Part shown: piece after piece, positions 14,428 to 31,050 of the stretch
How the letters are laid out: every line of letters begins with the position of its first letter
Position numbering within the stretch: the stretch's first letter is position 1
DNA from: an uncultured archaeon
Lineage (GTDB): Archaea; Asgardarchaeota; Lokiarchaeia; Sigyniarchaeales; SOKP01
Length of the DNA: 52,596 nt
Direction: 5' to 3'
Assembly: GCA_964583985.1 (NCBI GenBank)
Contig: CAZOYD010000007.1
Coordinates: 33,788-86,383, forward strand
The notes under the pieces: model-generated
The model's database searches: none
Seen by the model: the letters and a program-made list of their open reading frames with translations, nothing else
Told to the model about the DNA's origin: nothing
Translations under genes and position numbers: made by a program

Positions 14428-16662
14428 TTAATATTCAACTTCGCACTTATCACTATCACAATATCTTTCTCCAATTGCACGATCTTTTGTATCTCCAAGA
14501 AATAAGGGTTGAATTTTTGAAATTAATTCTTCATATCGTTCTTTTGAGATTTCTTCATAAGGCGCTTGTTTATATCCGTGGGTTTTAATGGGCAAAAAGC
14601 TAACACTTTTTAATTTATCTTCAAAACATTCTAAAACGTGAACAATTTGATCAGCTTCATTTGGTTGGAATGTTATCGTGATTGAAACTTGATTATCACT
14701 CCAAAACTTTTGATAATCGACTGCATTTTGCGCTTGTTCCCAAATAGAAACGTCATTTTTAGATCTGTTGAAAAATTTTTCAAAGACAGGAAATTCAGCT
14801 ACTACTGTATTTGGAGAATAAGCATCTGCTTCTACGATATAACCTGCTTTTTTAATTGGTTCTATCAGATCTGAATTCTTAGAAAGGCGAATTCTACGAA
14901 TATAGTATTTAGAATGAGGATAATGGATTCCTGGGGTAACTCCAGGTAATAAGCTTACACTACCACTTGGCTTAACAGTTGTTAGTTTAATTGAATGAGG
15001 AATGCAAAGCCAATTAGAATATTCTTCATCCAGTCCCTTTAAAAAATCATAAGCTTTATCACACCAATCAATCATTGTTCTTCTTCCATGTTTGACGAAT
15101 GCTTCAATAATACCCGTTTGAGAGATGCCCATTCTTCGATTTTTTAACATTACGGCGTTAGTTTCTTTCCAATGGGTGTTTACTAAAGTAACGCTTTTCG
15201 CATACAAATAAGCATACTTCAAAGTCTCTTCAAATTCTTCATATGAATCATGTCTCGATGGAAACGTTTCTACAAGACAACAAAGTTCGAAGGATTCTAG
15301 CGTTTGTTCTCCACATGGATTTACTCCTGCTGCTTTCTTATCTTTATAATCTGGTTTATCTTTCATTCTAGAATAAGCCCGTGCGTTTTCTAACCAAAAA
15401 ATACCTGGTTCTCCATTGACTTCAATCTGTTTACTTATAAATGAGTAATCCAATCCTTTTACAGCAAATACAGAATTATTACTGGCCCAGCGATGTGAGT
15501 ATAATTTATCTTGATCTTGCTTGCATGTGACAAATTCTAAATCTGTTGGATCGCCTAATGCGATTTCAGCAGAGCGCCGGACATTTCCTGCCACAACGCA
15601 TTTACCTATTAAATTCATTAGATCAACAATGTCAACGGAAGTAATTGGTTCATTGACTCGAGCTGCTAGAATACTTTTTATTTCGTTTAACATATCTTTA
15701 AGTGGTTCGGGTCCACTTGCTATTCCTCCAAAGCCTCTTATTGGTTTACCTGCCGGTCTGATAAGGGAAAAATCATAATTAGGTATCTGTTTACCAAGAA
15801 AATAAGCTTCTAAGGTCAGTCTGAGGGCTTCTACCCATCCTTCTCGACTATCAGGAATTTGAAAATCGAAATCACCAGCTGCAGGTTTTTTAATCGTGAT
15901 TTTTCCCGCTCCTCTCGTGTCAAATCCTACGCCCACGCCCAACATGAGGGCATCCATAACGAATTCAAAAGATTTTGATAATTTTAGATTAATATCTTCG
16001 GTCGATGCAAACCCACAATTATTCAGTGACATGGAACCGTTCTTTAGGACGAATTCGGTGCCCATCATCCATAAACCTCGTCCAGGTGGGAGAAATTTGA
16101 AATTCCAAATTTTTGAGAACATAATCTTGGCAGATTTTTGAGCCTTTTCATCGCTCCAAGGCAAGCTCAATTTGATGCAATGTTCTTTTTGAATGGAATA
16201 GCAACCTTCCACAACTCGTCTGACGGTTTCCCAAAATTTTTCTTTTCGATTTTCTCCTTCAATCATCCGAGCATAAGTTCGTTTATAAGTAACATAACCT
16301 AACGGACCCCAATCTGGTTGAATATCTTTATAATTATTTAAGAATACTTCATCTAATTTGAAAGAGATATTCTCTAAATTAATTGCACGTGCGAAGAGGT
16401 TACGATATTTATTCAATCGTCTTTGCGTGAGTTCAAGACAAACGAGCTCTCTAATATAGTTCGTCGTGATCTCATCTACTCCCAAACCGATTATTTTTCT
16501 AATGACATCTTCAGAAACTTCGGTTGCGATTCTCATGTCAAGTCCTGTTTCTTTATTCAAGATCTTGGATATGTTCATCTCATCAAACTTTTTTTTCTCT
16601 CCCTTTGAATTTATCACGAATTTTGGGAATAAATCGGATAAAGAAAACGAGTTATCTGTCAT
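14428..16662 (-). CDS. nrdJ: Class II (B12-dependent) ribonucleotide reductase, RTPR/monomeric type, with N-terminal ATP-cone
   Basis: YKRTYAR, PPGRGLW, LNNC, GNVRRSA, NPCGEQ thiyl motif, TVKPSG, C-terminal CDSDKC; N-terminal VINSKGEKKKFD..IRELVCLEL. Confidence 0.93.
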   Translation of the reverse strand: MTDNSFSLSDLFPKFVINSKGEKKKFDEMNISKILNKETGLDMRIATEVSEDVIRKIIGLGVDEITTNYIRELVCLELTQRRLNKYRNLFARAINLENISFKLDEVFLNNYKDIQPDWGPLGYVTYKRTYARMIEGENRKEKFWETVRRVVEGCYSIQKEHCIKLSLPWSDEKAQKSAKIMFSKIWNFKFLPPGRGLWMMGTEFVLKNGSMSLNNCGFASTEDINLKLSKSFEFVMDALMLGVGVGFDTRGAGKITIKKPAAGDFDFQIPDSREGWVEALRLTLEAYFLGKQIPNYDFSLIRPAGKPIRGFGGIASGPEPLKDMLNEIKSILAARVNEPITSVDIVDLMNLIGKCVVAGNVRRSAEIALGDPTDLEFVTCKQDQDKLYSHRWASNNSVFAVKGLDYSFISKQIEVNGEPGIFWLENARAYSRMKDKPDYKDKKAAGVNPCGEQTLESFELCCLVETFPSRHDSYEEFEETLKYAYLYAKSVTLVNTHWKETNAVMLKNRRMGISQTGIIEAFVKHGRRTMIDWCDKAYDFLKGLDEEYSNWLCIPHSIKLTTVKPSGSVSLLPGVTPGIHYPHSKYYIRRIRLSKNSDLIEPIKKAGYIVEADAYSPNTVVAEFPVFEKFFNRSKNDVSIWEQAQNAVDYQKFWSDNQVSITITFQPNEADQIVHVLECFEDKLKSVSFLPIKTHGYKQAPYEEISKERYEELISKIQPLFLGDTKDRAIGERYCDSDKCEVEY

Positions 16663-18864: not shown

Positions 18865-19617
18865 TCATTCTGATGGTGGAATTTTCTGTTCAAAATTCTT
18901 CCAAAGAATATTAAATGTATATCTACCAACAATATAAGCTAAGACGGTTCCAGAAATTTCATCAAGGATGTAATGTTGCTTTACAAATAAGGTTGACAAG
19001 ATTACACCAACCGCAATGATAAAAGTTAATATTGCAACAATCTTTTTCTTTAAGTCAGGTTTTAATTTATAATACCTGTACCATGCATAAAATATTATAA
19101 CTGAAACGGCCGCATGAAGACTTGGAAAACAATTAAATGAAGTGTCGGTCCTGTAATAATCAAATATCGCTTCAGCAAGAAAATTTCCTTGGTAGGAGCT
19201 TTCGATTGGGAATAATTGTTGTCTCCACCAATAAGTTGAAACGGGAAAGACAATATAGATAATTATTGCAATTGCGTTTATAATGACTAAAGCCCATCCA
19301 AGTGCATATCCTTTTTCAGGAACAACAAAAGCGAAATATAGCATTGAGATAATTACCATAGAATAGAATATATAAATGTAAAAAATCGACATTTCCGGGA
19401 CAAAAGGAATGTAATCATCCCAGAGATAATCTAGGCGAAAACCAGTTCCTTCTGGATACAAAGAACCCGTCCATTTATAAGCAATGGTATTTAACAAGAC
19501 ATAGAACACAACAATCATTAAAACTACGTTAATTATCGTGTATGCAAGCCATTTACTCCACTTGCTCGATTTTCCCTTAAAAAAAAGTTTTTCAATCCAT
19601 TTTTCGAATTTTTTAAT
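18865..19617 (-). CDS. PAP2-superfamily membrane phosphatase/phosphotransferase (AUR1/IPC-synthase-like), probable ATT start
   Basis: NCFPSLHAA and STLFVKQHYILD motifs; frame open to ATT 19617, 5 nt after GGTGAT (first ATG is 19518). Confidence 0.8.
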   Translation of the reverse strand: MKKFEKWIEKLFFKGKSSKWSKWLAYTIINVVLMIVVFYVLLNTIAYKWTGSLYPEGTGFRLDYLWDDYIPFVPEMSIFYIYIFYSMVIISMLYFAFVVPEKGYALGWALVIINAIAIIIYIVFPVSTYWWRQQLFPIESSYQGNFLAEAIFDYYRTDTSFNCFPSLHAAVSVIIFYAWYRYYKLKPDLKKKIVAILTFIIAVGVILSTLFVKQHYILDEISGTVLAYIVGRYTFNILWKNFEQKIPPSE

Positions 19618-19788: not shown

Positions 19789-20724
19789 TTGACGCTCGAA
19801 GAGGATAATAACAATGTAATATTTGATACAAATATTCCTGACGATAGCCCCATAAAAAAGGAACACATTAATTTACAATACCATTGGTATCTCTCCATAT
19901 TTATTATTATTTACTACATATCATACGTGATCCCGGGAATTATATTCATGTATTACATCTTACTGTTTTTTATTCCCAATTTCTTAAGAATAGACAGTCT
20001 AATCACGGTGTTCACGAATATGGAGTACTTATTTTCTTTTTTCATGCTTCCTGTTGTACTTGTATTTAGTTATTTTATCCACTTACTACTTGTGGCTCTG
20101 ATCACGCGTATTTTTTGGAGAATTACTGAAAAAATCAGCCCCTCAAAGGATGGAATTATTCCACGCAATATTGCTTCAAAAACTGCCAATTTATACCATA
20201 TTCGATCCTTCATGATTAAGTATGGAAAGAATGCATTCGTGAAGGGAATCTTACCATGGTTATCTAATTGGTTCTTTAATTTTGTGGGTGCAAGTGTTAT
20301 AGGAAAAGGCTCTACACTTGAAGAATCTGTTGTTAACGATAGAAATTCGATCGTTGGAAAGAATTGTTATGTTGGAGTCAATTCTGCATTATCAAGTCAT
20401 TTCGTTGAAGGAATCTTTGGTAATATTGTTTATTTTAAAATAAAATTAGGAGATAATGTAACACTTGGAGGGTTTAATAATATTGCCCCAGGATGTGAAA
20501 TCAGCGATAATTCATACTTGTTGCCCATGGCAGCTGCTACTAAACACAATACAACAAAAGGAGATAATTATTACTTCGGGATGCCATTACGCAGAATTTT
20601 CAAAAAAAAAATCATGGAATATTTACAAGTGACTGAGGAAGATTTAGATCGTGCAGAAGAACTTCGAAACAAACAAAAAACCCTAAATATTGAAAAAATT
20701 AGTGAGGAGAACCTAAAGGAGTGA
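19789..20724 (+). CDS. Membrane-anchored left-handed beta-helix (hexapeptide repeat) acyltransferase-like protein, subunit A, copy 1
   Basis: 2 TM, PSKDGIIPR, VGASVIGKGS, VGKNCYVG, SSHFVEG, LGDNVTLG, YFGMP. Confidence 0.8.
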   Translation: MTLEEDNNNVIFDTNIPDDSPIKKEHINLQYHWYLSIFIIIYYISYVIPGIIFMYYILLFFIPNFLRIDSLITVFTNMEYLFSFFMLPVVLVFSYFIHLLLVALITRIFWRITEKISPSKDGIIPRNIASKTANLYHIRSFMIKYGKNAFVKGILPWLSNWFFNFVGASVIGKGSTLEESVVNDRNSIVGKNCYVGVNSALSSHFVEGIFGNIVYFKIKLGDNVTLGGFNNIAPGCEISDNSYLLPMAAATKHNTTKGDNYYFGMPLRRIFKKKIMEYLQVTEEDLDRAEELRNKQKTLNIEKISEENLKE

Positions 20725-20730
20725 TGAGTT

Positions 20731-21642
20731 ATGGAAAATGATGACATAGATAGTAATATAAACACTGAAGAAAGTAGTAATGAAAGTAGCGATGATGATT
20801 TTTCTATTGATTTTACAACAAGTTCTGCTATAAGTAGTGTCGGACTCAAATTTCTTGTCCTATATATACCAATTTTTTGGTTCAGTGGACTTGTTGTTGC
20901 GACTTTTTGGTATGGATATGCTGCTGGTTCAACGTTTTGGATAATAAAACTATTATATTTACCGTTATTTCTGTTATCTCTGATGTTTCTTTTCATTTTC
21001 ACGAGTTTTTTCTTTTGCAAACTGTTATTAATTCTAATAAATTTGATGTGTGTTCCAAAAGAAGGTATTTTTCGAATTGATACTAAAGATCCAAATTTCG
21101 AATTCTGGAAATTGAGAATCGAACTGAAAAAAATTGTGTTATGGTTCTTACGAAATTGGCCATTACCTTGGCTAGATGTGCTAGCTTTTCGCTTTTTCGG
21201 GGTAAAAATAGACTTTTCAAGCCATCTTAATGATGCATGGGTAGATTGCGAATTCATCGAATTCGGCAACAATATAACAGTCGGCCAAGGGGCTGTTTTG
21301 ATGAGTTCCATGATTGTTGGCAACTTTTTAATTATAAAAAAGATAACCTTGGATGATTTTTCCTTAATTGGAGGCCAAAGCACAATAGCTCCAGGAACTC
21401 ATTTTGGAAAAGATACCGTTTTAGGAGCAGTATCGGTCACCACGCTAAACCAGCGTTTAGAAGATGGATGGATTTATGGAGGAATTCCGGCCCGTAAGTT
21501 TAAACCTAATAAATATGCGGAAGAACGCACTTCAACTATCCATAAAGTCGATGTAGATGAAGAAGAAAAAGTTGAAGTTGAATATGACATTAATATTGAT
21601 GAAAATAAAAGAAAATTTTTAAAAAGGGGTTCTAAAGAATGA
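20731..21642 (+). CDS. Membrane-anchored LbH acyltransferase-like protein, subunit B, copy 1
   Basis: 2 TM, PKEGIF, FFGVKID, FGNNITVGQG, IAPGTHFG, WIYGGIPA. Confidence 0.8.
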   Translation: MENDDIDSNINTEESSNESSDDDFSIDFTTSSAISSVGLKFLVLYIPIFWFSGLVVATFWYGYAAGSTFWIIKLLYLPLFLLSLMFLFIFTSFFFCKLLLILINLMCVPKEGIFRIDTKDPNFEFWKLRIELKKIVLWFLRNWPLPWLDVLAFRFFGVKIDFSSHLNDAWVDCEFIEFGNNITVGQGAVLMSSMIVGNFLIIKKITLDDFSLIGGQSTIAPGTHFGKDTVLGAVSVTTLNQRLEDGWIYGGIPARKFKPNKYAEERTSTIHKVDVDEEEKVEVEYDINIDENKRKFLKRGSKE

Positions 21643-22571
21643 GCGTACCTAATTCGATGCGCGTGGGTCCATTTTGTGCTTCTGTGTTGGTCAAGAAGAG
21701 ATATTTATTCTTGTACATATTTTTGATTTGGATAAGTATACTCCCAGGATTATTGGAACTATGGGCATATTGGCAAGCACTATGGAATGATGTACGACCG
21801 CTTTTTTTTTACGTGTATTTACCTCTTTTATTACTTGCAATTTATATTACTACGGTAATTGCCGCAATAATTTTCACGAAAATGGTGTTAATTGTTATAA
21901 ATATCTTGCATAAACCAAAAGAAGGTGTATTTTTACGTCACCCCTCTGATAAGGATTATAGATATTGGTCATTAAGGAATACTATTAAAAAATGGCCAAC
22001 TTGGCTTTCTCATAAATTTCCTTTCCCATTTCTCGATAATCTCTGTTTTAAAGTTTTTAATGTAAAAACAACTTTTTCTAATAGCTTGTTTGAAGGATGG
22101 GTGGACACGGAATTCATTTCGTTTGGAAAAAACGTGGTTTGTGGTCAAGGTGCAATCATTCAATCCAGTGTTATAATTGGTAATTTTTTAATAATAAGAA
22201 AAACCATAATTGAGGATAATGTTAGGATAGGAGCTCATGTAATAGTAATGCCTGGTACTCACATTGGGAGAAACTCTATCTTAAATACATGGTCCTCTAC
22301 AATGATAGGACAGGAATTGGAAGAAGGGTGGATATATAATGGCGGTCCAGCTAAAAAATTCAAAAAAAACAGGTTTTTCGAAGACATTCCGATCGAAAAG
22401 CTTTCTCAAAAAGTAGGAGATTATGAAGGATTGCTGAAAAAGTATGATGAACAATATGTTAAGCGGGAAGTGAAAAAACGTCGTTTGTTAGAAAAAAATA
22501 TTAAACCATCCTTCCACTTAAAAGATAGATTACATCTGAGAAAAGATAAAGATAATGATGACGAAAATTAA
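21639..22571 (+). CDS. Membrane-anchored LbH acyltransferase-like protein, subunit C, copy 1
   Basis: 2 TM, PKEGVF, FGKNVVCGQG, VMPGTHIG, WIYNGGPA; ATGA overlap with subunit B. Confidence 0.8.
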   Translation: MSVPNSMRVGPFCASVLVKKRYLFLYIFLIWISILPGLLELWAYWQALWNDVRPLFFYVYLPLLLLAIYITTVIAAIIFTKMVLIVINILHKPKEGVFLRHPSDKDYRYWSLRNTIKKWPTWLSHKFPFPFLDNLCFKVFNVKTTFSNSLFEGWVDTEFISFGKNVVCGQGAIIQSSVIIGNFLIIRKTIIEDNVRIGAHVIVMPGTHIGRNSILNTWSSTMIGQELEEGWIYNGGPAKKFKKNRFFEDIPIEKLSQKVGDYEGLLKKYDEQYVKREVKKRRLLEKNIKPSFHLKDRLHLRKDKDNDDEN

Positions 22572-22590
22572 AAGGCATTCCCTTTAATAT

Positions 22591-22983
22591 TCAAATTTCT
22601 ATTTTCAATTGATTTTTTAAATATTTTATAATATCTAAGCATGTTTTTTTCCTTTTTTTTTTATCTGGGTATAATAGAGAGGATTTTGGACAATCATCGT
22701 CGAGCGTGCATTTATGATTATCAATATCGTAAATTAAAGGATAAAATCTGCATCCTTGTGGTCTAATGTCATAAATATGACACTTTTTTGAAATGAGGTC
22801 ATAGAAATAGCAGTGATGATCTTGATTTCTTAATTGTAACCATCCATCTCTACCAACAAAACAAAAATCATCTTGCTTCATTTCTCCCTTGAAACTTCTC
22901 ATTATTCGTGTCACATCTTCTTGAGAAAGGATCATTTCAGTTTCCAAACAACATTTTCCGCAATCGAAACAGATGTTAGTCAT
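22591..22983 (-). CDS. YkgJ-family CxxCxxCC cysteine-cluster protein
   Basis: CFDCGKCC ... CYFYD...CHIYDIRPQGCRFYP. Confidence 0.88.
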   Translation of the reverse strand: MTNICFDCGKCCLETEMILSQEDVTRIMRSFKGEMKQDDFCFVGRDGWLQLRNQDHHCYFYDLISKKCHIYDIRPQGCRFYPLIYDIDNHKCTLDDDCPKSSLLYPDKKKRKKTCLDIIKYLKNQLKIEI

Positions 22984-23133
22984 ATTGATAGATAAATTAA
23001 TTTATTACTTACATAATTCATTTCATTCTTTTTGTATTTTTTTTATTTTAAAGATATTTTTATCCATTAGGTAAATTTTAAAATCTTAAAACATTAAGTC
23101 AGTTATATAAAAATTATTGGTGAAATTGTAAAA

Positions 23134-25047
23134 ATGTTGGAGGATTCTTTAGAAAGAGGTTCAAAAATAGAGGAGATTCCTAAAGCAGAAGTTATAAAAG
23201 AGGAAATAAATATGCAATTTGGATGGTATATCTTCATTTTTATCACAATATACTATCTTTCTTGGTTATTAGCTGGTTTCGTATTTTTCTTATATTTCCT
23301 CATTGAATTCATGCCAAACGTCCTCCAAGTTAGCTCTTTTATTACCATATTTACAGAACCAAAATCTATAATCTCGTTATTGTTAATGCCATTGATAGTA
23401 ATCGCTTGCTACGTTATTAGATTGATATCTGTTGCTATAACAACGCGTATTTTTTGGCGAATTACGGAGAGAATTTCTCCTAGCAAAGATGGAGTAATTC
23501 CAAGAAATATTAGATCTAAGGCAGCTGATTATTACCATCTTCGATCTTTCATGTTGAAATATGGTAAGAATCTTTTTACGAAGGGAATGTTTCCATGGTT
23601 ATCTAACTGGTTCTTTAATTTTGTAGGATCATCAAAAATAGGTAAAGGGACAACTTTAGAAGAGTCTGTTGCTTCAGATAAATTTATTACAGTTGGAAAT
23701 AATACCTACATGGGCGTGAACGCAACACTGGCGAGCCACCTCGTTCAAGGTATATTTGGGAACATTCAATATTTTCGAATGCATATCGGAAATAATGTAA
23801 CAATTGGTGCAATGGATCAGATTGGACCGGGTAGCGATATTATGGATGGCTCATATCTCTTACCCCTTGCATCAACGAATAGACATAGTGTTTTAAAAGG
23901 GGGAAACAATTACTATTTTGGCATTCCTCTCAGAAAAATATTCATGAAAAAGACAATGAACTACTTGGGATTAACTGAGGAAGATTTAGAAAAAAATGAG
24001 AACCTTGAAGCCTACCTAGAAAGAAATAAGGAAAAAGTTACCCGTAAAGAGAAAAAAAGAAAGAAAAATAATGAGATGAAAAGTGTATCATCAGAAGCTA
24101 ACACCACAGAAATAAAAGAAGTACAAAAAGAAAAAATAGATGTAGAAAGTCTTACTAAAGAAGATCTCTCCATAGATTTCACAACGTCGAGTGCAATTAG
24201 TAGGATTAATATTAAATTCCTTTTAGTCTATGTTCCGATTTTATGGCTTGCAGGATTAATTATTTCCATATTCTGGTATGAATATACAAAAGGAGCTTGG
24301 AATTTTTCAAATCAAACTAATCTAATTTATTCAATTTTCAAAAATATCAGCACAATTCTCTTTCTTCCTCTCGCGATTTTAATCATGATTTATCTCTTCA
24401 TTTTAGGTGTATTGATCTTTAGCAAATTATTATTAATATTCATCAACTTGATACATCAGCCAAAGGAAGGCATTTTTTTGGCAGAAGTAAGAAATCCTGA
24501 TTATGATTTTTGGATGTTTCGTACAGAACTAAAGAAAATTACTTTATGGCTTTTAAGAAATAGTCCCGTACCCTGGGCCGATTTTATAGCATTGAAGTGG
24601 TTTGGAGTAAATATGGATAGTTCAAGTCATTTATATGATGCGTGGTGTGATGTAGATTTCATCTCGATTGGAAGAAAAGTTCTTATTGGTCAAGGGGCTA
24701 CGATCATGTCATCCATGGTAATTGGAAAATATTTGATTATTAAGCGCGTGGTGTTTGATGACTATGTCATGGTGGGTGGTCATACTACTATAGCACCAGG
24801 TACAATCATGGGGCACGATTCTGTTATAGGGGCAATCAGCTCCACGACTTATAAACGTATTCTCAATCCAAATTATATTTACTTTGGAATTCCCGCCATT
24901 CCCTTGAAAGAAAATAAATATGCTGAAGAACGAAGGGATCTTGTAGTAAAAAGACACGTAGATGAATCAAAAAAAACTGAAGAAACTCATGAAGTCAATA
25001 TCGATGAAGATAAAAAGAAATTTATTAAAATCGGAGACGGTAAGTAA
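23134..25047 (+). CDS. Fused A+B membrane-anchored LbH acyltransferase-like protein, copy 2
   Basis: N-half aligns to 19789-20724 (PSKDGVIPRNI, PWLSNWFFNFVG); C-half aligns to 20731-21642 (SIDFTTSSAIS, NKYAEER); charged linker. Confidence 0.85.
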   Translation: MLEDSLERGSKIEEIPKAEVIKEEINMQFGWYIFIFITIYYLSWLLAGFVFFLYFLIEFMPNVLQVSSFITIFTEPKSIISLLLMPLIVIACYVIRLISVAITTRIFWRITERISPSKDGVIPRNIRSKAADYYHLRSFMLKYGKNLFTKGMFPWLSNWFFNFVGSSKIGKGTTLEESVASDKFITVGNNTYMGVNATLASHLVQGIFGNIQYFRMHIGNNVTIGAMDQIGPGSDIMDGSYLLPLASTNRHSVLKGGNNYYFGIPLRKIFMKKTMNYLGLTEEDLEKNENLEAYLERNKEKVTRKEKKRKKNNEMKSVSSEANTTEIKEVQKEKIDVESLTKEDLSIDFTTSSAISRINIKFLLVYVPILWLAGLIISIFWYEYTKGAWNFSNQTNLIYSIFKNISTILFLPLAILIMIYLFILGVLIFSKLLLIFINLIHQPKEGIFLAEVRNPDYDFWMFRTELKKITLWLLRNSPVPWADFIALKWFGVNMDSSSHLYDAWCDVDFISIGRKVLIGQGATIMSSMVIGKYLIIKRVVFDDYVMVGGHTTIAPGTIMGHDSVIGAISSTTYKRILNPNYIYFGIPAIPLKENKYAEERRDLVVKRHVDESKKTEETHEVNIDEDKKKFIKIGDGK

Positions 25048-25053
25048 ATTATC

Positions 25054-26004
25054 ATGTCAATTCCAAATTCCATGCGGGTGGGTCCTTTTCTGCCTACTAT
25101 TTTAGTAAAGAAAAGATATTTAATTTTTTACATATTAATAGTCTGGTTGAGCGCAATTCCCCTTTTTATTGAATTTTGGGTTTACTATCGTTTTGTTTGG
25201 AGCTCTATTCGACCAATTTTCTTCTTTATATATCTACCCTTGTTATTATTGCCGATGTATTTAACCTTAGCATTTTCTGCGATGATTTGGGCTAAATTAA
25301 TCTTGATTTTTGTTAATTGGTCCCATTCTCCTCGTGAAGGCGTGTTTTTACGTCACCCTTCTGATAAGGATTATAGATATTGGTCATTAAGGAATACGAT
25401 TAAAAGATGGCCTTTTTGGGTCTGTCATAGATTTCCGTTTCCTTTTTTGGATAATGTTTGCTTTAAAGTCTTTAATGTGAAGACTAAATTTTCTAATTCC
25501 TTGTTTGAGGGATGGGTGGACACTGAATTCATTTCGTTTGGAAAAGACGTTGTTTGTGGTCAAGGTGCGATCATTCAATCCAGTGTAATAATTGGAAATC
25601 TCCTGATTATTAAAAAAACAATTATAGAGGATGATGTCAGGATTGGATCACACGCCATTGTCATGCCAGGAACCCACATTGGAAATAAAAGCGTGTTAGC
25701 AGCAAATTCGGTGACCACGGTAGGACAAGTTTTAAAAGATAATTGGATTTATGTTGGTATTCCATGCAAGGAATTTAAACGAAATTGGTTTTTTGAAGAT
25801 GGATTAGAAGATAAGTTAGGCGTGGCTGAAGATATTAATGCATTACTGGGAAAATATGAAAAAATCATTACTAAGGTAAGATGGACTGAAGGTCTCACCT
25901 TAAAAGAACGTAAGGCGATAAAACGGCAACAAAAGGAAGCTGAGGAACGCCGTTGGGAGCTCAGTAAAGAGAGGGATGAGGAAAACCACGAAGACGTGTT
26001 CTAA
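25054..26004 (+). CDS. Membrane-anchored LbH acyltransferase-like protein, subunit C, copy 2
   Basis: Paralog of 21639-22571 (MSIPNSMRVGPF, FLRHPSDKDYRYWSLRNTIK, NSLFEGWVDTEFISFG). Confidence 0.85.
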   Translation: MSIPNSMRVGPFLPTILVKKRYLIFYILIVWLSAIPLFIEFWVYYRFVWSSIRPIFFFIYLPLLLLPMYLTLAFSAMIWAKLILIFVNWSHSPREGVFLRHPSDKDYRYWSLRNTIKRWPFWVCHRFPFPFLDNVCFKVFNVKTKFSNSLFEGWVDTEFISFGKDVVCGQGAIIQSSVIIGNLLIIKKTIIEDDVRIGSHAIVMPGTHIGNKSVLAANSVTTVGQVLKDNWIYVGIPCKEFKRNWFFEDGLEDKLGVAEDINALLGKYEKIITKVRWTEGLTLKERKAIKRQQKEAEERRWELSKERDEENHEDVF

Positions 26005-26841
26005 TTATTGATTAATTGTTCCATATCGTCGTAGAAAGTTAGAGATAAGAGCATAATAAAGCTCTGAATTATTAGTCGGAAGCATGTGATCTGAATTAGG
26101 TGCAATCGCAAGCTCTGAATATGGTATGAGTCGATAAATTTCCACGGCTTCTTCAACAGGGATATCATCATGATCAGCATGAACGATAAGTACAGGTAAG
26201 GTGATGTTTTTTATTTTTTCTCCAAGAAATTCTTCGTGGCTTAACCAAACTTTTGATATTTCTACCATAAATTTCTTCCAATAATCAAGTCCATAGACTG
26301 GTGAATAAGCTTCTTGTAAAACGGGAATATATTCCTTAAAAAAATTCTCGAATATCTCAAAATTTACAACTCCTGGGTTCAAAAAACCAATTTCGTTAAG
26401 ACTTTTAATATATGATTCTGAAATTTTTATTAATACTCCTGAAACGACAATAGCTTTAATTAATTCGGGATAATTCAAAGCTAATTCTAACGCAATTTGT
26501 CCGCCATCACTCTGTCCACAAATCAATGGTTTTTCCAGATTTAAAACGGTAATCAATTCAGCAATATCATCTGCAATTAGTTTATAACTCAATTTACCAG
26601 TTGGATTATCAGTTTTTCCGTGACCTCGATAATCAGGTGCAATAATATGAAAATTTTTCGAAAGTTTAGGAATTAGATTTCCCCAATTTATCTTCGCAGT
26701 TGATAACCCACCATGGAGTAAAATTATAGGATATCCTTCTCCTTGTTCTAAATAAAAGGTATTAATTCCATTTGCTATGATATGTTTTTCCTTTATCTGA
26801 TTTTTCAATTTTACATCACAATTTATTGTTTGAAAATTCAT
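26005..26841 (-). CDS. Alpha/beta-fold hydrolase
   Basis: LLHGG, DYRGHGKTD, GQSDGG nucleophile elbow, C-terminal D and H. Confidence 0.9.
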   Translation of the reverse strand: MNFQTINCDVKLKNQIKEKHIIANGINTFYLEQGEGYPIILLHGGLSTAKINWGNLIPKLSKNFHIIAPDYRGHGKTDNPTGKLSYKLIADDIAELITVLNLEKPLICGQSDGGQIALELALNYPELIKAIVVSGVLIKISESYIKSLNEIGFLNPGVVNFEIFENFFKEYIPVLQEAYSPVYGLDYWKKFMVEISKVWLSHEEFLGEKIKNITLPVLIVHADHDDIPVEEAVEIYRLIPYSELAIAPNSDHMLPTNNSELYYALISNFLRRYGTINQ

Positions 26842-26857
26842 TTAATGAGAATGGAAG

Positions 26858-27565
26858 TTATTTAATGATGAAATACATTCTTCGGTTTTTAGCACCTTTA
26901 TTGACTGTTTTAATCAATTTAATAGTACCTATTTCTTTCAAATGCTGAATATGAGTTCCACCATCAACTTGTTCATCAATGTCACCTATTCTTACGATGC
27001 GAAATTCTTTAAGCCCTTTAGGTAATCCCAAGGCTAAACGAGCAAGTTCTGGTTTCTTCATGACTTCCTCACGATTCATGTAATCGACAGTTACCGGCAG
27101 ATCTTGTTGAATAATATCGTTAGCTTCATCTACAAAAGCTTGAAGCTTCTCGGGAGAATAATCTTCCATTGAAAAATCCATTCGACATTTATCCATTTCA
27201 ATCTGATTGCCCGTAATTTTAGCGTTCGCTTTTCTATATAATAAATTACTGATCAAATGACAAGCTGTATGGGACCTCATAAAAGTGTATCGCCGCTCCC
27301 AATCGATCTTACATGATACAAGATCTCCCTCTATCAAACCTGGTTTATCAACTTCATGACTGATTTCTCCTGAAAATTTACCCACATACACGACGCTAAA
27401 CTTTTCTCCATTTTTAGTAATTATTCCCTCGTCATGAGGCTGACCGCCAGATTTTGGATAATAAGCAGTTCTGTCGAGAATAACAAATTTCCCTTCAGTG
27501 ACTTTCAGTACTTTTGCATCCCATACTTTCAAGTAAGAATCATTCATATATAACGCATTGGCCAT
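26858..27565 (-). CDS. alaXM: Free-standing alanyl-tRNA editing protein (AlaX-M)
   Basis: LYMNDSYLK, RTAYYPKSGGQPHDEG, MRSHTACH, DGGTH, KGAKNRR. Confidence 0.9.
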   Translation of the reverse strand: MANALYMNDSYLKVWDAKVLKVTEGKFVILDRTAYYPKSGGQPHDEGIITKNGEKFSVVYVGKFSGEISHEVDKPGLIEGDLVSCKIDWERRYTFMRSHTACHLISNLLYRKANAKITGNQIEMDKCRMDFSMEDYSPEKLQAFVDEANDIIQQDLPVTVDYMNREEVMKKPELARLALGLPKGLKEFRIVRIGDIDEQVDGGTHIQHLKEIGTIKLIKTVNKGAKNRRMYFIIK

Positions 27566-27782
27566 AGTTTAAACAAAGAATGATTTTTTTAAATTGTTAT
27601 TATATCATACATATTTTTCATTTAATAGGGATCTACCTACGGTAATGATGCTCTAACATTTGAATCGATATATTCAATTTAAATTTAGTTTAGACAAAAT
27701 TGTAATTTTGATTAATCAAATTTGATACATTTTCTATCTATATATCTCATTATATTATATAAAACAATGAAATTTGATTATC

Positions 27783-29258
27783 ATGAATCTAAAAACAAAA
27801 TTTAGCTTTATTTTCTCAATAGTTTTACTCCTATTACCACTTATATCGAATTTTATTATTCATCCTAATATTGCTACTAAAATCGCTCAGTTTAATGCAA
27901 ATGATAATCCAAAGTCATCTAATTATTGGATTATGGGACCAATTTATATCAATGGATCAGCTCTAGGAGTTGATGCTCATAATTGGACCTGGGCAGAAAA
28001 CCAACCTTGGTGCAGTGGTAACGGTACATTAATAAATCCTTATCTTCTTGAAAATATTACAATCGATTGTGGAGGTGTAGGAAGTGGAATTTTCATAGAG
28101 AATTCAGTAAATGAGTATTTTATTGTAAAAAACTGTACAATAATGAGTGCTGGAACAAGTGGAGGCATTAGACTTATAGAGGTTCAAAATGGTACTATTA
28201 TTAATAATAATATTAGTAATAATTATGCGGGAATGTATCTTGGTCATTGCGAAGGTATCAACATAACAGGAAATATTGTGTTTAATAATATTGGACAAGG
28301 CATTATTTTGCTCCTTAGTATGTATAATCTCATTATTAATAATACACAAAAAGGTAGTCGATACTACGGTTTGTTCTTACAAAGTCAAAGTAATAATAAC
28401 ACAATAATTGGTAATAATTTTACAGAAAACACTCATTCAGTCTATGATGGAGATGGGATTAAAATTAAAAATAGTAACGGAAATATAGTAATAGAGAATA
28501 TATTGAAAGATAATGACAGAGGAATAGAAATTTTAGATAATTCGAACGAAAATGAAATTTTTGATAATACAATACACGATAATGCAGAATATGGCGTATT
28601 AATTCAAAGAGAATCTCGAGAATGTTTGGATAATATCATTTATGATAATAATATTGCTAACCCGTTAGGAATGAATGCTTATGATAATGGCACAAATACG
28701 CAATGGGATTATCAAAATCAAGGTAACTATTGGGCAGATTATTTAGGTGCTGATAATAACGATGATGAAATAGGAGATACACCTTATATTATTCTTGGAA
28801 CGGACTTAAGTCAAGATAACTTCCCCATATGGGACGATGGTCCAAATCCAGTCCCAATAATAATTCTTAACTCACCACTTGAAGTATCAGAGAGAATATT
28901 TGGGATTTCCGCTCCAACAATTAATATAACCATTACGGATAATGATTTAGCTGAAGCTTGGTATACTATCAATTCTGGAACAATCAGATACTATTTCTCA
29001 CCAATTAATGGAATCAACATTATTTCTATTAATCAAACCGTCTGGAGTGCTTTAGATGAAGGAAGCATAACAATCACCATTTTTACGAATGATACTCAAG
29101 GACAAGAGGTTAATCTTCCCATCTTATTCACTAAAGATATTTCTTCACCCTCACAACCAGCGATTCCATATGGAAATTACTATATCATGTTTATGGTAAT
29201 TAGCATTCTCTCTCTACTCATGATCGCATCAAGAAAGAGCAAAATAATATATTCTTAA
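27783..29258 (+). CDS. Secreted/surface right-handed parallel beta-helix (NosD/CASH-like) protein with C-terminal membrane anchor
   Basis: N-terminal signal, N/I-rich PbH repeats, GNYWADY, C-terminal IPYG + TM + RKSK; ATG 27783 (TTG 27774 possible). Confidence 0.85.
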   Translation: MNLKTKFSFIFSIVLLLLPLISNFIIHPNIATKIAQFNANDNPKSSNYWIMGPIYINGSALGVDAHNWTWAENQPWCSGNGTLINPYLLENITIDCGGVGSGIFIENSVNEYFIVKNCTIMSAGTSGGIRLIEVQNGTIINNNISNNYAGMYLGHCEGINITGNIVFNNIGQGIILLLSMYNLIINNTQKGSRYYGLFLQSQSNNNTIIGNNFTENTHSVYDGDGIKIKNSNGNIVIENILKDNDRGIEILDNSNENEIFDNTIHDNAEYGVLIQRESRECLDNIIYDNNIANPLGMNAYDNGTNTQWDYQNQGNYWADYLGADNNDDEIGDTPYIILGTDLSQDNFPIWDDGPNPVPIIILNSPLEVSERIFGISAPTINITITDNDLAEAWYTINSGTIRYYFSPINGINIISINQTVWSALDEGSITITIFTNDTQGQEVNLPILFTKDISSPSQPAIPYGNYYIMFMVISILSLLMIASRKSKIIYS

Positions 29259-30015: not shown

Positions 30016-31050
30016 ATGAATCAAGTGGAATATAAAGGTGATACTTATGAAGTCCAAAAAGGATTTCTGGATTTAGGATTGTTAGAAATATCAGACATAG
30101 AAAACATCCATGGATTAGATACTCTTGATATTAAACATCTGGAATTGAGTTCGAATGAAATCACGGAGATTAAAGGATTAGAATCGATTAAAACCTTGGA
30201 AATTTTAAATTGCAGCAATAATCAAATAAGACATATATCAGGGCTATCCGAACTGCAAAACCTAAAAATCTTACATTTGGCATCAAATCAATTTTTAAAA
30301 ATTGAAGGTTTAGAAAATCTTTCATCTTTAGAAGAATTATATTTGCGAGGTAATCAAATTTCATCTCTATCCGGACTGGATGGATTGAAATCTCTGCAAA
30401 AGTTGGATTTGTCTTGGAATGCGATTACAAAAATTCAAGGATTGGAAACATTAAGCGAATTAGAAGTACTATGGATTGCGGGAAACCAAATAAAAAAAAT
30501 TGAAGGATTAGATAAATTGGAAAACCTACAGATTTTAAATCTTGCGGGAAATGAGATATCTCAACTTGAAAACGTAGATCACTTATTAAATTTGAGGGAA
30601 CTATATCTTAATGATAATAAATTGAAGAAGATTGAAAATTTGGCAAATCTTACAAATTTAGAAACTTTTTGGGCTACATCTAATAAAATTAAAGAAATTG
30701 AAGGGTTTGAAAATTGTAGCAATCTCCAGGTTCTAAACTTGAAAGATAATGAGGTAGATGAAATAAAAGGACTATATCCCTTGATAAATTTAAATAAATT
30801 ATTCCTCTCAGGAAATAAAATAGAACATATTAAAGGGCTTGAAACACTTCAAAATTTGGAAACTTTAGATTTAGGGGATAATCATATATCTCTTATAAAG
30901 GGTTTAGAATCATTAATCAATTTAAAAGATTTATGGCTTTATGGAAACAATGTAGATCCGAGTTTAATTAATAAAATGGGAGGATTAGATTCGGGTGGGT
31001 GTGCATTTGATGCATCAAAATTTGTAGAATACTGTCTTGTAAATCTCTAA
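30016..31050 (+). CDS. Leucine-rich repeat protein (SDS22-like 22-aa repeats)
   Basis: About 13 repeats of LxxLxLxxNxIxxIxGLxxLxx. Confidence 0.93.
   Translation: MNQVEYKGDTYEVQKGFLDLGLLEISDIENIHGLDTLDIKHLELSSNEITEIKGLESIKTLEILNCSNNQIRHISGLSELQNLKILHLASNQFLKIEGLENLSSLEELYLRGNQISSLSGLDGLKSLQKLDLSWNAITKIQGLETLSELEVLWIAGNQIKKIEGLDKLENLQILNLAGNEISQLENVDHLLNLRELYLNDNKLKKIENLANLTNLETFWATSNKIKEIEGFENCSNLQVLNLKDNEVDEIKGLYPLINLNKLFLSGNKIEHIKGLETLQNLETLDLGDNHISLIKGLESLINLKDLWLYGNNVDPSLINKMGGLDSGGCAFDASKFVEYCLVNL

Follow-up and report, generated by a model that had tools for sequence, protein, structure and literature searches.

Two paralogous gene cassettes for a putative membrane-anchored heteromeric LbH acyltransferase in an Asgard archaeon

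Two neighbouring clusters of genes for membrane proteins with LbH domains lie in the window, the whole 52,596-nucleotide stretch of Asgard archaeal DNA analysed here. They raise the question of whether their products form one heteromeric enzyme, work as separate enzymes, or act as the free-standing polymerase part of a poly-amino-acid synthetase of the Pls type, as a preliminary description had proposed. Our answer, which we consider probable though well short of certain, is that two paralogous operons in the window encode an LbH acyltransferase that is membrane-anchored, heteromeric and of an ABC type, with one active site.

Gene content and module layout of the two cassettes

All five open reading frames of the cassettes are present on the plus strand. 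The first cassette consists of A (19789..20724, 311 aa), B (20731..21642, 303 aa) and C (21639..22571, 310 aa), which share one module layout of two TM stretches, a helical linker and an LbH. The second consists of A'B' (23134..25047, 637 aa), a natural fusion of an A-type and a B-type module, and its partner C' (25054..26004, 316 aa), a C-type module. A and B have a common reading frame with TGA TGA GTT in between, B and C overlap by 4 nt, and a gap of 6 nt separates A'B' from C'; this tight spacing suggests that the cassette genes are co-translated. BLASTP gave identities of 57% between A and A', 50% between B and B', and 58% between C and C', and two hydrophobic stretches were found ahead of the LbH in every module, hence four TM stretches in A'B'. 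B and C are 37-46% identical to each other, and A is 20-26% identical to B or C. The reading frames, BLASTP and TM stretches thus agree with the preliminary description, in which A, B and C were three distinct paralogs and the set recurred at 23134-26004 with A and B fused.

The hexapeptide repeats (PF00132) scored above the Pfam threshold in every cassette protein except B, whose score was below it (12 bits), yet B matches LbH families in NCBIfam. An alignment of 38 modules contains the motifs named in the preliminary description, with P-K-E-G-x-F after TM2, then a W...R helix, and Y-x-G-x-P-A at the end of the LbH; no variation is seen at G235 and almost none at P237. The density of lysine and arginine is 1.31 per 10 aa in the N-terminal flank, 0.48 in the loop between TM1 and TM2, and 2.23 after TM2, and this distribution shows each module as a predicted cytoplasmic LbH on a helical membrane hairpin of N-in/C-in topology. 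Hundreds of Asgard assemblies conserve the family at 60-88% identity, which is far beyond chance and marks it, judged by sequence, as real; the C homologs in this range carry the names Lokiarchaeota or Promethearchaeota. The host genome has 13 modules, an A-type gene stands by itself on contig C10, and several paralogous sets per genome are found.

The conserved histidine and the predicted trimer

The candidate catalytic residue is His204 of A, in the motif S-S-H-F-V-E-G, which aligned by both HMMER and hhalign with His115 of E. coli LacA, the general-base histidine of that galactoside acetyltransferase. The A-type half of the fusion keeps the histidine (A-S-H-L-V-Q-G), and at the same place B reads S-S-M and C reads S-S-V, so that the general base of MAT/GAT-like LbH acyltransferases is present in A and A' only. 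In the wider family, the histidine occupies this column in 42 of 51 A-type sequences (nine lack it), 0 of 13 B-type and 3 of 27 C-type sequences; the counts for x1 and x2 are 7/7 and 0/8. No histidine was invariant or nearly so across the 38-module alignment, and the one conserved histidine belongs to the A type. These comparisons of sequence show that, among A, B and C, His-x-x-Glu is retained by A alone.

Relatives outside the Asgard archaea carry the same histidine. It is found in module 3 of Pls proteins (4/4; none in modules 1 and 2), in module 2 of bacterial triple-module proteins (6/6), and in 75 of 76 single-gene relatives, of which 64 have glutamate at +3. The single-gene forms, with one gene per locus and the histidine nearly always in place, presumably assemble into homotrimers, each with three active sites. 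Since such probably homotrimeric forms are frequent among bacteria and other archaea, A, B and C could likewise each form a homotrimeric membrane acetyltransferase of its own, with differing substrates and with clustering due to tandem duplication; the lone A-type gene on contig C10 and the existence of arrays with three A copies would fit this arrangement. However, the histidine of the single-gene forms is missing in B and C, and thus a B3 or C3 trimer would have no general base. A plain paralog array also does not account for the strict order and translational coupling of the genes, for repeated fusions that always follow the cyclic order and never unite two modules of one type, or for the prediction of a triple fusion as one body. 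We consider it improbable.

That prediction comes from AlphaFold2 modelling of P0126, a natural C-A-B fusion of 805 aa, which gave one compact body (pLDDT 84.3, pTM 0.85) in which every module has two long helices, a strand, two helices and an LbH. The alignment used for this model contained fusions only, and a MAFFT alignment that matched the B half of AB proteins to the C module was dropped. When A'B' was modelled alone, the predicted fold was poor (pLDDT 66.9, pTM 0.57, with the LbH of the A module below 50), which may be an effect of the alignment rather than of the absent partner. The published AlphaFold model of the Pls/PosA C-terminal domain is a beta-helix pseudo-trimer on a six-helix bundle and, for PosA, has the same elements as the P0126 model (PMC10522769). 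From the pTM of P0126 and this literature model we infer a pseudo-trimer packing for the Asgard proteins. Foldseek against the PDB returned MAT, GAT and CysE, all of the LbH fold, as best matches (E ~1e-5); no PDB chain spanned more than one module, and no solved Pls-like architecture was found.

A non-enzymatic role was also considered. A gamma-carbonic-anhydrase-like heterotrimer sits on plant complex I, and the top PDB sequence matches of C are CAL/CA subunits of mitochondrial complex I, a heterotrimer on the membrane arm; by analogy, A, B and C might form a heterotrimeric LbH cap that serves as a scaffold or transporter part. These matches are weak, however (E ~1e-5), and cover generic LbH turns only; A-type modules, for their part, strongly conserve a His-x-x-Glu that corresponds in alignment to the general base of an acetyltransferase. 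On both counts such a scaffold is very unlikely. The three conserved zinc-binding histidines were not found in the 38-module alignment, and identity with gamma-carbonic anhydrase was rejected.

In the acyltransferase reading that we favour, a single copy each of A, B and C would assemble into a pseudo-threefold beta-helix trimer over a six-helix membrane bundle, and the only active site would lie at one of the interfaces of A. B and C would be degenerate structural subunits born by duplication, B being a family-specific copy of C. Additional A or AB paralogs that share a common B and/or C may yield isoenzymes of differing specificity.

Gene order, fusions and neighbours among Asgard archaea

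In the archaeal family of the host, the order A-B-C is kept in 8/8 loci retrieved, with array variants AAABC, AABC, AB-AB-AB-C and ABC+AB. A was detected in 129, B in 122 and C in 119 of 133 genomes of this family, and with the host genome included all three types occur together in 119/134. Coordinates show A, B and C to be adjacent in over 10 additional genomes. A "1 TAA inside" flag on one B match (G209/L014) proved by coordinates to be the terminal stop codon and no break in the gene. A search of the ESM Atlas returned Asgard clusters and one Bdellovibrionota cluster only.

The only types of fusion seen were A-B, C-A and C-A-B, and like was never joined with like, which means that the cyclic order is kept in the fusions too. 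At the level of sequence, these data show that A, B and C stay in the fixed cyclic order A>B>C. In other genomes, C2-type genes likewise stand behind AB fusions (L014, L015). Split and fused cassettes stand side by side in many genera; both forms are old, and a tree hints that the split A of the host genus may itself descend from a fused form. It is therefore misleading to see the cassettes, as the preliminary description did, as two stages of a fusion in progress.

A sister archaeal family has two-gene A+C sets, which are also present in its single-contig genomes, and this limits an obligate ABC set to the host's archaeal family. Together with the lone A gene on contig C10, the A+C pairs indicate that the stoichiometry is not 1:1:1 everywhere. 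The obligate heterotrimer proposed in the preliminary description is thus favoured by gene order, co-occurrence, cyclic fusions, the single histidine-bearing type and the predicted fold of the triple fusion, but does not extend to the sister family.

The neighbouring genes were compared as well, and no conserved gene pointing to a substrate was found beside the Asgard cassettes. Between the two cassettes of the window, on the minus strand, lies a gene with a Pfam match to the small Zn/Fe-chelating CxxCxxCC protein (PF03692; 22591..22983), and a homolog adjoins or splits the cassettes in 7/8 loci of the host's family. It is the sole recurring neighbour, and any functional link to the cassettes is hypothetical. 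An AlaX-like tRNA-editing gene is located at 26858-27565; the RNR, Zn-ADH, AlaX and LRR neighbours reflect synteny at genus level only, and the PAP2 gene (18865-19518) is not conserved beside cassettes. In the sister family, an Elf1-like protein and a small ORF are encoded upstream of the A+C set.

Donor, and relation to known LbH systems

None of the five proteins matched AMP-binding or PP-binding domains. The preliminary description noted that adenylation and carrier domains are absent from the window; the whole host genome (rated 100% complete) has 0 matches to PF00550, no adenylation domain above the NRPS cut-off, and none near the cassettes. A thiotemplate polymerase is unlikely for this reason, and acetyl-CoA, acyl-CoA or another soluble thioester would most likely be the donor. 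As acceptor, a membrane-associated molecule (a lipid head group or lipid-linked glycan) would be most likely, or else a product may pass through the helix bundle. Our best guess pairs an acyl-CoA-type donor with an acceptor associated with the membrane.

The relation to Pls was assessed with profiles. The best NCBIfam match of B (35.9 bits) and of C (42.6 bits) is TIGR02353, and that of A and A'B' is NF058585 (YvoF-type). The five proteins scored 15.4-47.6 bits against TIGR02353 and the triple fusion P0126 scored 67 bits, and all six fall below the curated cut-off of 423.1 bits; the real members P0268, P0254 and P0272 reach 471-612 bits. Conversely, the module profile found genuine Pls-type NRPSs at E ~1e-35 over three stretches; for P0268 (an A domain plus TIGR02353 at 471 bits) the E value was 1.7e-34. 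When the whole module was compared with Pls modules by hhalign, the alignment covered 183 columns, from TM2 onward to the module end, with a probability of 99.7. The triplicate LbH supplies the larger part of the score against Pls. Profiles of the linker only, or of TM2 plus linker, gave nothing above 5 bits against real Pls in HMMER, and hhalign aligned only 18 linker columns (the R-x-x-G-x-K-I-G motif, probability 53), so we do not claim direct homology of the linker with Pls. TM2 plus linker matched an intermediate group of bacterial triple-module proteins with a probability of 92 over 87 columns, including P-x-E-G-x-F. The likeness to Pls suggested earlier holds for the top matches of B and C and is significant for the LbH and the whole module, and not for the linker and TM part.

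These comparisons bear on whether A, B and C form a free-standing Pls-like polymerase, which would make an amide-linked polymer such as a poly-amino acid from a monomer activated in trans (as aminoacyl-tRNA, aminoacyl-CoA or on an unrecognised carrier) and export it via the six-helix bundle. The module architecture and the design of one histidine in three are common to both systems, the A-type HMM prefers the histidine-bearing module 3 of Pls, and an AlaX-like gene is close by. Nevertheless, the synteny of that gene is confined to the genus, a true TIGR02353 protein (E<=1e-40) was found in 0/399 Asgard genomes, the genome lacks the PP-binding and NRPS-grade adenylation domains, and the closest solved folds and the histidine alignment favour CoA-dependent acetyltransferases. 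We regard such a polymerase as unlikely, and with it, given a genome without a carrier domain, the poly-amino-acid product proposed earlier.

A rather speculative variant, to which we give only slightly more credence, is that ABC is a carrier-independent polymer- or surface-modifying synthase, in which a single site on a six-helix conduit would draw on a soluble activated donor and either assemble or decorate a polymer or lipid for export, specific to this Asgard order. If this were true, the A paralogs would provide a combinatorial set of products, and the system would be a living intermediate for the origin of the Pls polymerase, from homotrimer to heterotrimer to fused pseudo-trimer.

In our preferred acyltransferase reading, the cassettes present a Pls-like design in subunits, one catalytic and two degenerate, of which split, pairwise-fused and fully fused forms coexist. 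They offer a natural series for the passage from a symmetric homotrimer to an asymmetric single-site machine, and for asking which interface does the chemistry. The cassette genes are nearly universal in one Asgard order, and an order-specific modification of the membrane or surface likely awaits discovery. The literature searched contained no solved structure of a poly-lysine-type polymerising domain and no free-standing relative of it, and nothing was found on the Asgard A/B/C family, with searches for Asgard hexapeptide acyltransferases and for TIGR02353 each returning nothing.

Among known systems, the LacA, Maa and YvoF-type (NF058585) acetyltransferases share the LbH fold, with LacA His115 corresponding to the A-type histidine, but these enzymes are soluble, have three equivalent sites per homotrimer, and possess neither a TM hairpin nor degenerate partner subunits. 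The single-gene 2TM-LbH proteins of Betaproteobacteria, Myxococcota, Bdellovibrionota, Poseidoniales and others, whose top NCBIfam match is TIGR02353, have the single-module layout and the H-x-x-E-G motif seen in Asgard archaea; they differ in standing as one gene per locus and in nearly always keeping the histidine. The betaproteobacterial forms adjoin a GT1/EryCIII-like glycosyltransferase, TPR proteins and a MacB-type permease, none of which was found beside Asgard cassettes. A further group is formed by the bacterial stand-alone triple-module proteins of 650-685 aa (e.g., MBK8576353.1 from Elusimicrobiota and the Propionivibrio locus L028), which likewise have no NRPS part and carry the histidine in the middle module only, in the order of the Asgard C-A-B fusions; unlike the Asgard system, they are always a single polypeptide and are bacterial. 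Pls/PosA synthetases end in three modules, each with two TM stretches, a strand plus two helices and a five-turn LbH, and one of these, module 3, bears His-x-x-Glu, as A does in Asgard archaea. The three modules are spread over three or two genes in the window, as separate or pairwise-fused genes, and are joined in the fusions P0126 and P0129. The Asgard proteins differ from Pls/PosA in having no adenylation or thiolation domain, in the place of the histidine-bearing module in the chain order, and probably in donor and product. Taken together, the Asgard system is homologous to the terminal modules of Pls/PosA in architecture and catalytic design and stands outside that NRPS family.

Two cassettes of three paralogous membrane modules

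The preliminary description of a duplicated three-paralog cassette was confirmed. Five ORFs lie on the + strand, namely A (19789-20724, 311 aa), B (20731-21642, 303 aa) and C (21639-22571, 310 aa), followed by A'B' (23134-25047, 637 aa) and C' (25054-26004, 316 aa). BLASTP among the six modules gave identities of 57% for A and A', 50% for B and B' and 58% for C and C', 37-46% between B and C, and 20-26% between A and either B or C; the six modules therefore fall into three paralog types, and the second set carries A and B as one fused protein. From the N- to the C-terminus, each module has two hydrophobic stretches, P-K-E-G-x-F, a W...R helix, the hexapeptide turns of a left-handed beta-helix (LbH) and Y-x-G-x-P-A at the end. 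A and B are in the same frame, two stops and one codon apart (TGA TGA GTT ATG, 20722-20733), and the paralog A'B' has an open linker where the split A and B have stop codons. The B and C genes overlap by 4 nt. An antisense ORF of 270 aa (20571-21383, - strand) overlaps A and B; it has weak matches, all of them at places that the sense genes also match, and most likely does not represent a real gene.

Between the two cassettes lies a gene for a 130-aa CxxCxxCC (PF03692) protein (22591-22983, - strand). Its homologs are found beside or between cassettes in 7 related loci, and the recurrence of this sole recurrent Asgard neighbour suggests a possible functional link. A PAP2-family lipid phosphatase gene (18865-19518, - strand) is divergent and upstream of A; no PAP2 gene was found beside the cassette in eight related loci. 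An alpha/beta hydrolase gene (26005-26841, - strand) lies directly downstream of C', followed by that of an AlaX-like tRNA-editing domain protein (26858-27565, - strand), which is kept in three genus-level loci only. Also in the window are genes for a B12-type (class II) ribonucleotide reductase with an ATP cone (14428-16662, - strand), a NosD-like right-handed beta-helix protein (27774-29258, + strand) and a 344-aa leucine-rich-repeat protein (30016-31050, + strand).

Distribution and history of the module types

Close homologs (60-88% identity) come from organisms named Lokiarchaeota, Promethearchaeota, Thor- or Hodarchaeota and bear only generic names, such as 'DapH/DapD/GlmU-related'; a literature search found no publications on this protein family. 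Among 399 genomes of the phylum (E<=1e-20), the A type was present in 129 of the 133 genomes of the window's own family, at 2-5 copies per genome, and in 13 of 14 genomes of a sister family. Only 2 of the roughly 250 remaining genomes had it: the one genome that represents a third family of this order, and G057, whose match (best 86% identical to A) may be a binning artefact. Within the window's family, the B type was found in 122/133 genomes (E<=1e-70) and the C type in 119/133 (E<=1e-85). The window's genome carries three further sets: a C-A fusion with B on contig C18, a two-gene pair on C84 with and without the His discussed below (His+/His-), and a lone A-type gene on C10. The C84 pair (locus L024) is followed 9 nt on by a metallophosphoesterase gene (4702-6297 of L024, - strand, 531 aa) with two calcineurin-like phosphoesterase stretches.

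In the sister family the sets consist of two genes, A+C, and the type nearest to B is C; therefore, B is read as a later copy of C. Upstream of these pairs at three loci (L017-L019; genomes G138, G135 and G143) are a small ORF of 134-162 aa with no Pfam match and a protein of 205-206 aa that carries an Elf1-like zinc ribbon, an arrangement kept in three genera. In the A-module tree, the split A of the window and its relatives from the genus make up one clade (100/99), nested within a weakly supported group (92/93) that holds all AB-fused A modules. Together with the in-frame TGA TGA, this position gives a hint, though no decisive support, that the separate A|B genes of this genus arose from a fused one. 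The two arrangements had been taken as a snapshot of two stages of fusion; both kinds of cassette are old and coexist in several genera, so this reading was abandoned.

Evidence for a proposed heteromeric A+B+C enzyme

The three genes are conserved together in other genomes, as all types co-occur in 119 of 134 family genomes (window's own counted) and the order A-B-C was constant in 8/8 loci examined, one from each of eight genomes. These loci include A-A-A-B-C, A-A-B-C, AB-AB-AB-C, and AB-AB-C plus A-B-C; thus, there are several A or AB paralogs to a single B and/or C. Among the longer proteins of two large protein collections, the only fusions were A-B, C-A or C-A-B (P0126, P0129 and P0130), with no B-A, A-C or like-with-like fusions. 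All of them respect the cyclic order A>B>C>A, as expected if the chain ends of ring neighbours become joined.

His204 of A aligned to His115 of E. coli LacA both by HMMER and by hhalign (probability 96.9); His115 is the general base of that enzyme. In the Asgard three-gene types, this His was present in 42/51 A, 0/13 B and 3/27 C modules, and in the two-gene type in 7/7 His+ and 0/8 His- partners. Single-gene relatives (Betaproteobacteria, Myxococcota, Bdellovibrionota, Planctomycetota, Poseidoniales and others) kept the His in 75/76 cases and a Glu at +3 in 64/76. Therefore, forms that are necessarily homo-oligomeric are all complete, whereas multi-gene forms have the His in one type only. 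Taken together, order, co-occurrence, cyclic fusions and the single His-bearing type provide good comparative support for what remains a proposed heteromeric A+B+C enzyme.

AlphaFold2 prediction of a natural 805-aa C-A-B fusion (24-row alignment of fusions) gave a mean pLDDT of 84.3 and a pTM of 0.85, with low confidence only in the two inter-module linkers; such a pTM despite disordered linkers indicates a confident mutual arrangement, in which the three modules would pack like a trimer. Within every module the model shows a pair of long helices, of about 30 and 37 residues, then a short strand and two more helices ahead of the beta-helix. A'B' alone was predicted poorly (pTM 0.57; A-module beta-helix pLDDT below 50), which fits a missing partner but could also be an effect of the alignment. 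The best Foldseek matches were maltose, galactoside and serine acetyltransferases, and no solved structure spanned more than one module.

Positive-inside counts (K+R per 10 aa) in 31 modules were 1.31 for the N flank, 0.48 for the loop and 2.23 for the stretch behind TM2. By this measure both hairpin ends are cytoplasmic, and so is the beta-helix, on the side that offers acyl-CoA. The model with most support is a membrane-anchored pseudo-trimeric acyltransferase in which A would contribute the single active site and B and C would complete the trimer and a six-helix bundle. The donor would probably be an acyl-CoA, and the acceptor probably a molecule that either associates with the membrane or moves through the bundle. 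The sole outside hint of a substrate comes from Betaproteobacterial single-gene relatives of the 2TM-LbH layout (loci L033, L053, L032 and L058), which adjoin a GT1/EryCIII-like glycosyltransferase, large TPR proteins of about 940 aa and a permease of the MacB/FtsX type; these neighbours suggest an exported glycoconjugate or glycolipid as the molecule that is acylated. The Asgard cassettes have no neighbours of this kind. The four loci look like an undescribed envelope gene cluster.

Comparison with the Pls and PosA terminal domains

The cassette had been proposed as the free-standing equivalent of the Pls-type polymerase region (TIGR02353). None of the five cassette proteins has an adenylation or carrier domain, and a PP-binding domain, present in 11/14 control genomes, is absent from the whole genome, whose completeness is rated at 100%. 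Its adenylate-forming enzymes resemble acyl-CoA ligases, with none above the NRPS A-domain cut-off and none near the cassettes on the cassette contigs. TIGR02353 matched 0/399 Asgard genomes at E<=1e-40, with a positive Corynebacterium control. Therefore, a split thiotemplate poly-amino-acid synthetase is unlikely.

TIGR02353 is the top NCBIfam match of B and C, at 36-43 bits in the LbH only; with a cut-off of 423 bits and the adenylation and carrier domains absent, membership of the Pls NRPS family was rejected. A search of 1.84 billion representatives with a profile built on 38 single modules found 176 proteins at E<=1e-30. These include P0268 (1713 aa; E 1.7e-34 over three stretches), a genuine Pls-type NRPS with an adenylation domain and TIGR02353 (471 bits); P0261, an NRPS-like protein of 1696 aa with the TIGR02353 region ahead of the adenylation domain; P0254, a fragment of a 1342-aa Desulfobulbaceae peptide synthetase; and stand-alone bacterial triple-module proteins of 650-685 aa, the named ones from Elusimicrobiota. 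The score against Pls-type proteins is mostly the LbH counted three times. Another relative, P0215 (960 aa, metagenome), has a short-chain dehydrogenase fused ahead of the triple module.

In hhalign, the whole Asgard module matched Pls modules with a probability of 99.7 (E 8e-27) over 183 columns, collinear from TM2 to the end, but TM2 and linker alone reached only 53 over 18 columns against real Pls, compared to 92 (E 6e-7) over 87 columns, including P-x-E-G-x-F, against the bacterial triple-module group. That group scores 157-184 bits with TIGR02353 across TM, linker and LbH. The kinship to the Pls terminal domain is real in module architecture, LbH sequence and single-His design; for TM2 and linker taken alone, the similarity to real Pls was not significant.

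The single-His catalytic design is common to Pls and the Asgard ABC set. In Pls the His is in module 3 only (Q-T-H-L-F-E, 4/4), which is also the module with the best A-type HMM score of the three; the bacterial triple proteins carry it in module 2 only (6/6), the middle module, as in the Asgard C-A-B fusions. In the published AlphaFold description, the PosA terminal domain consists of three five-turn beta-helices, packed in the manner of sugar-nucleotide acyltransferases, and six bent helices in the membrane; each hairpin is separated from its beta-helix by one strand and two helices (PMC10522769). The Asgard C-A-B model contains these same elements.
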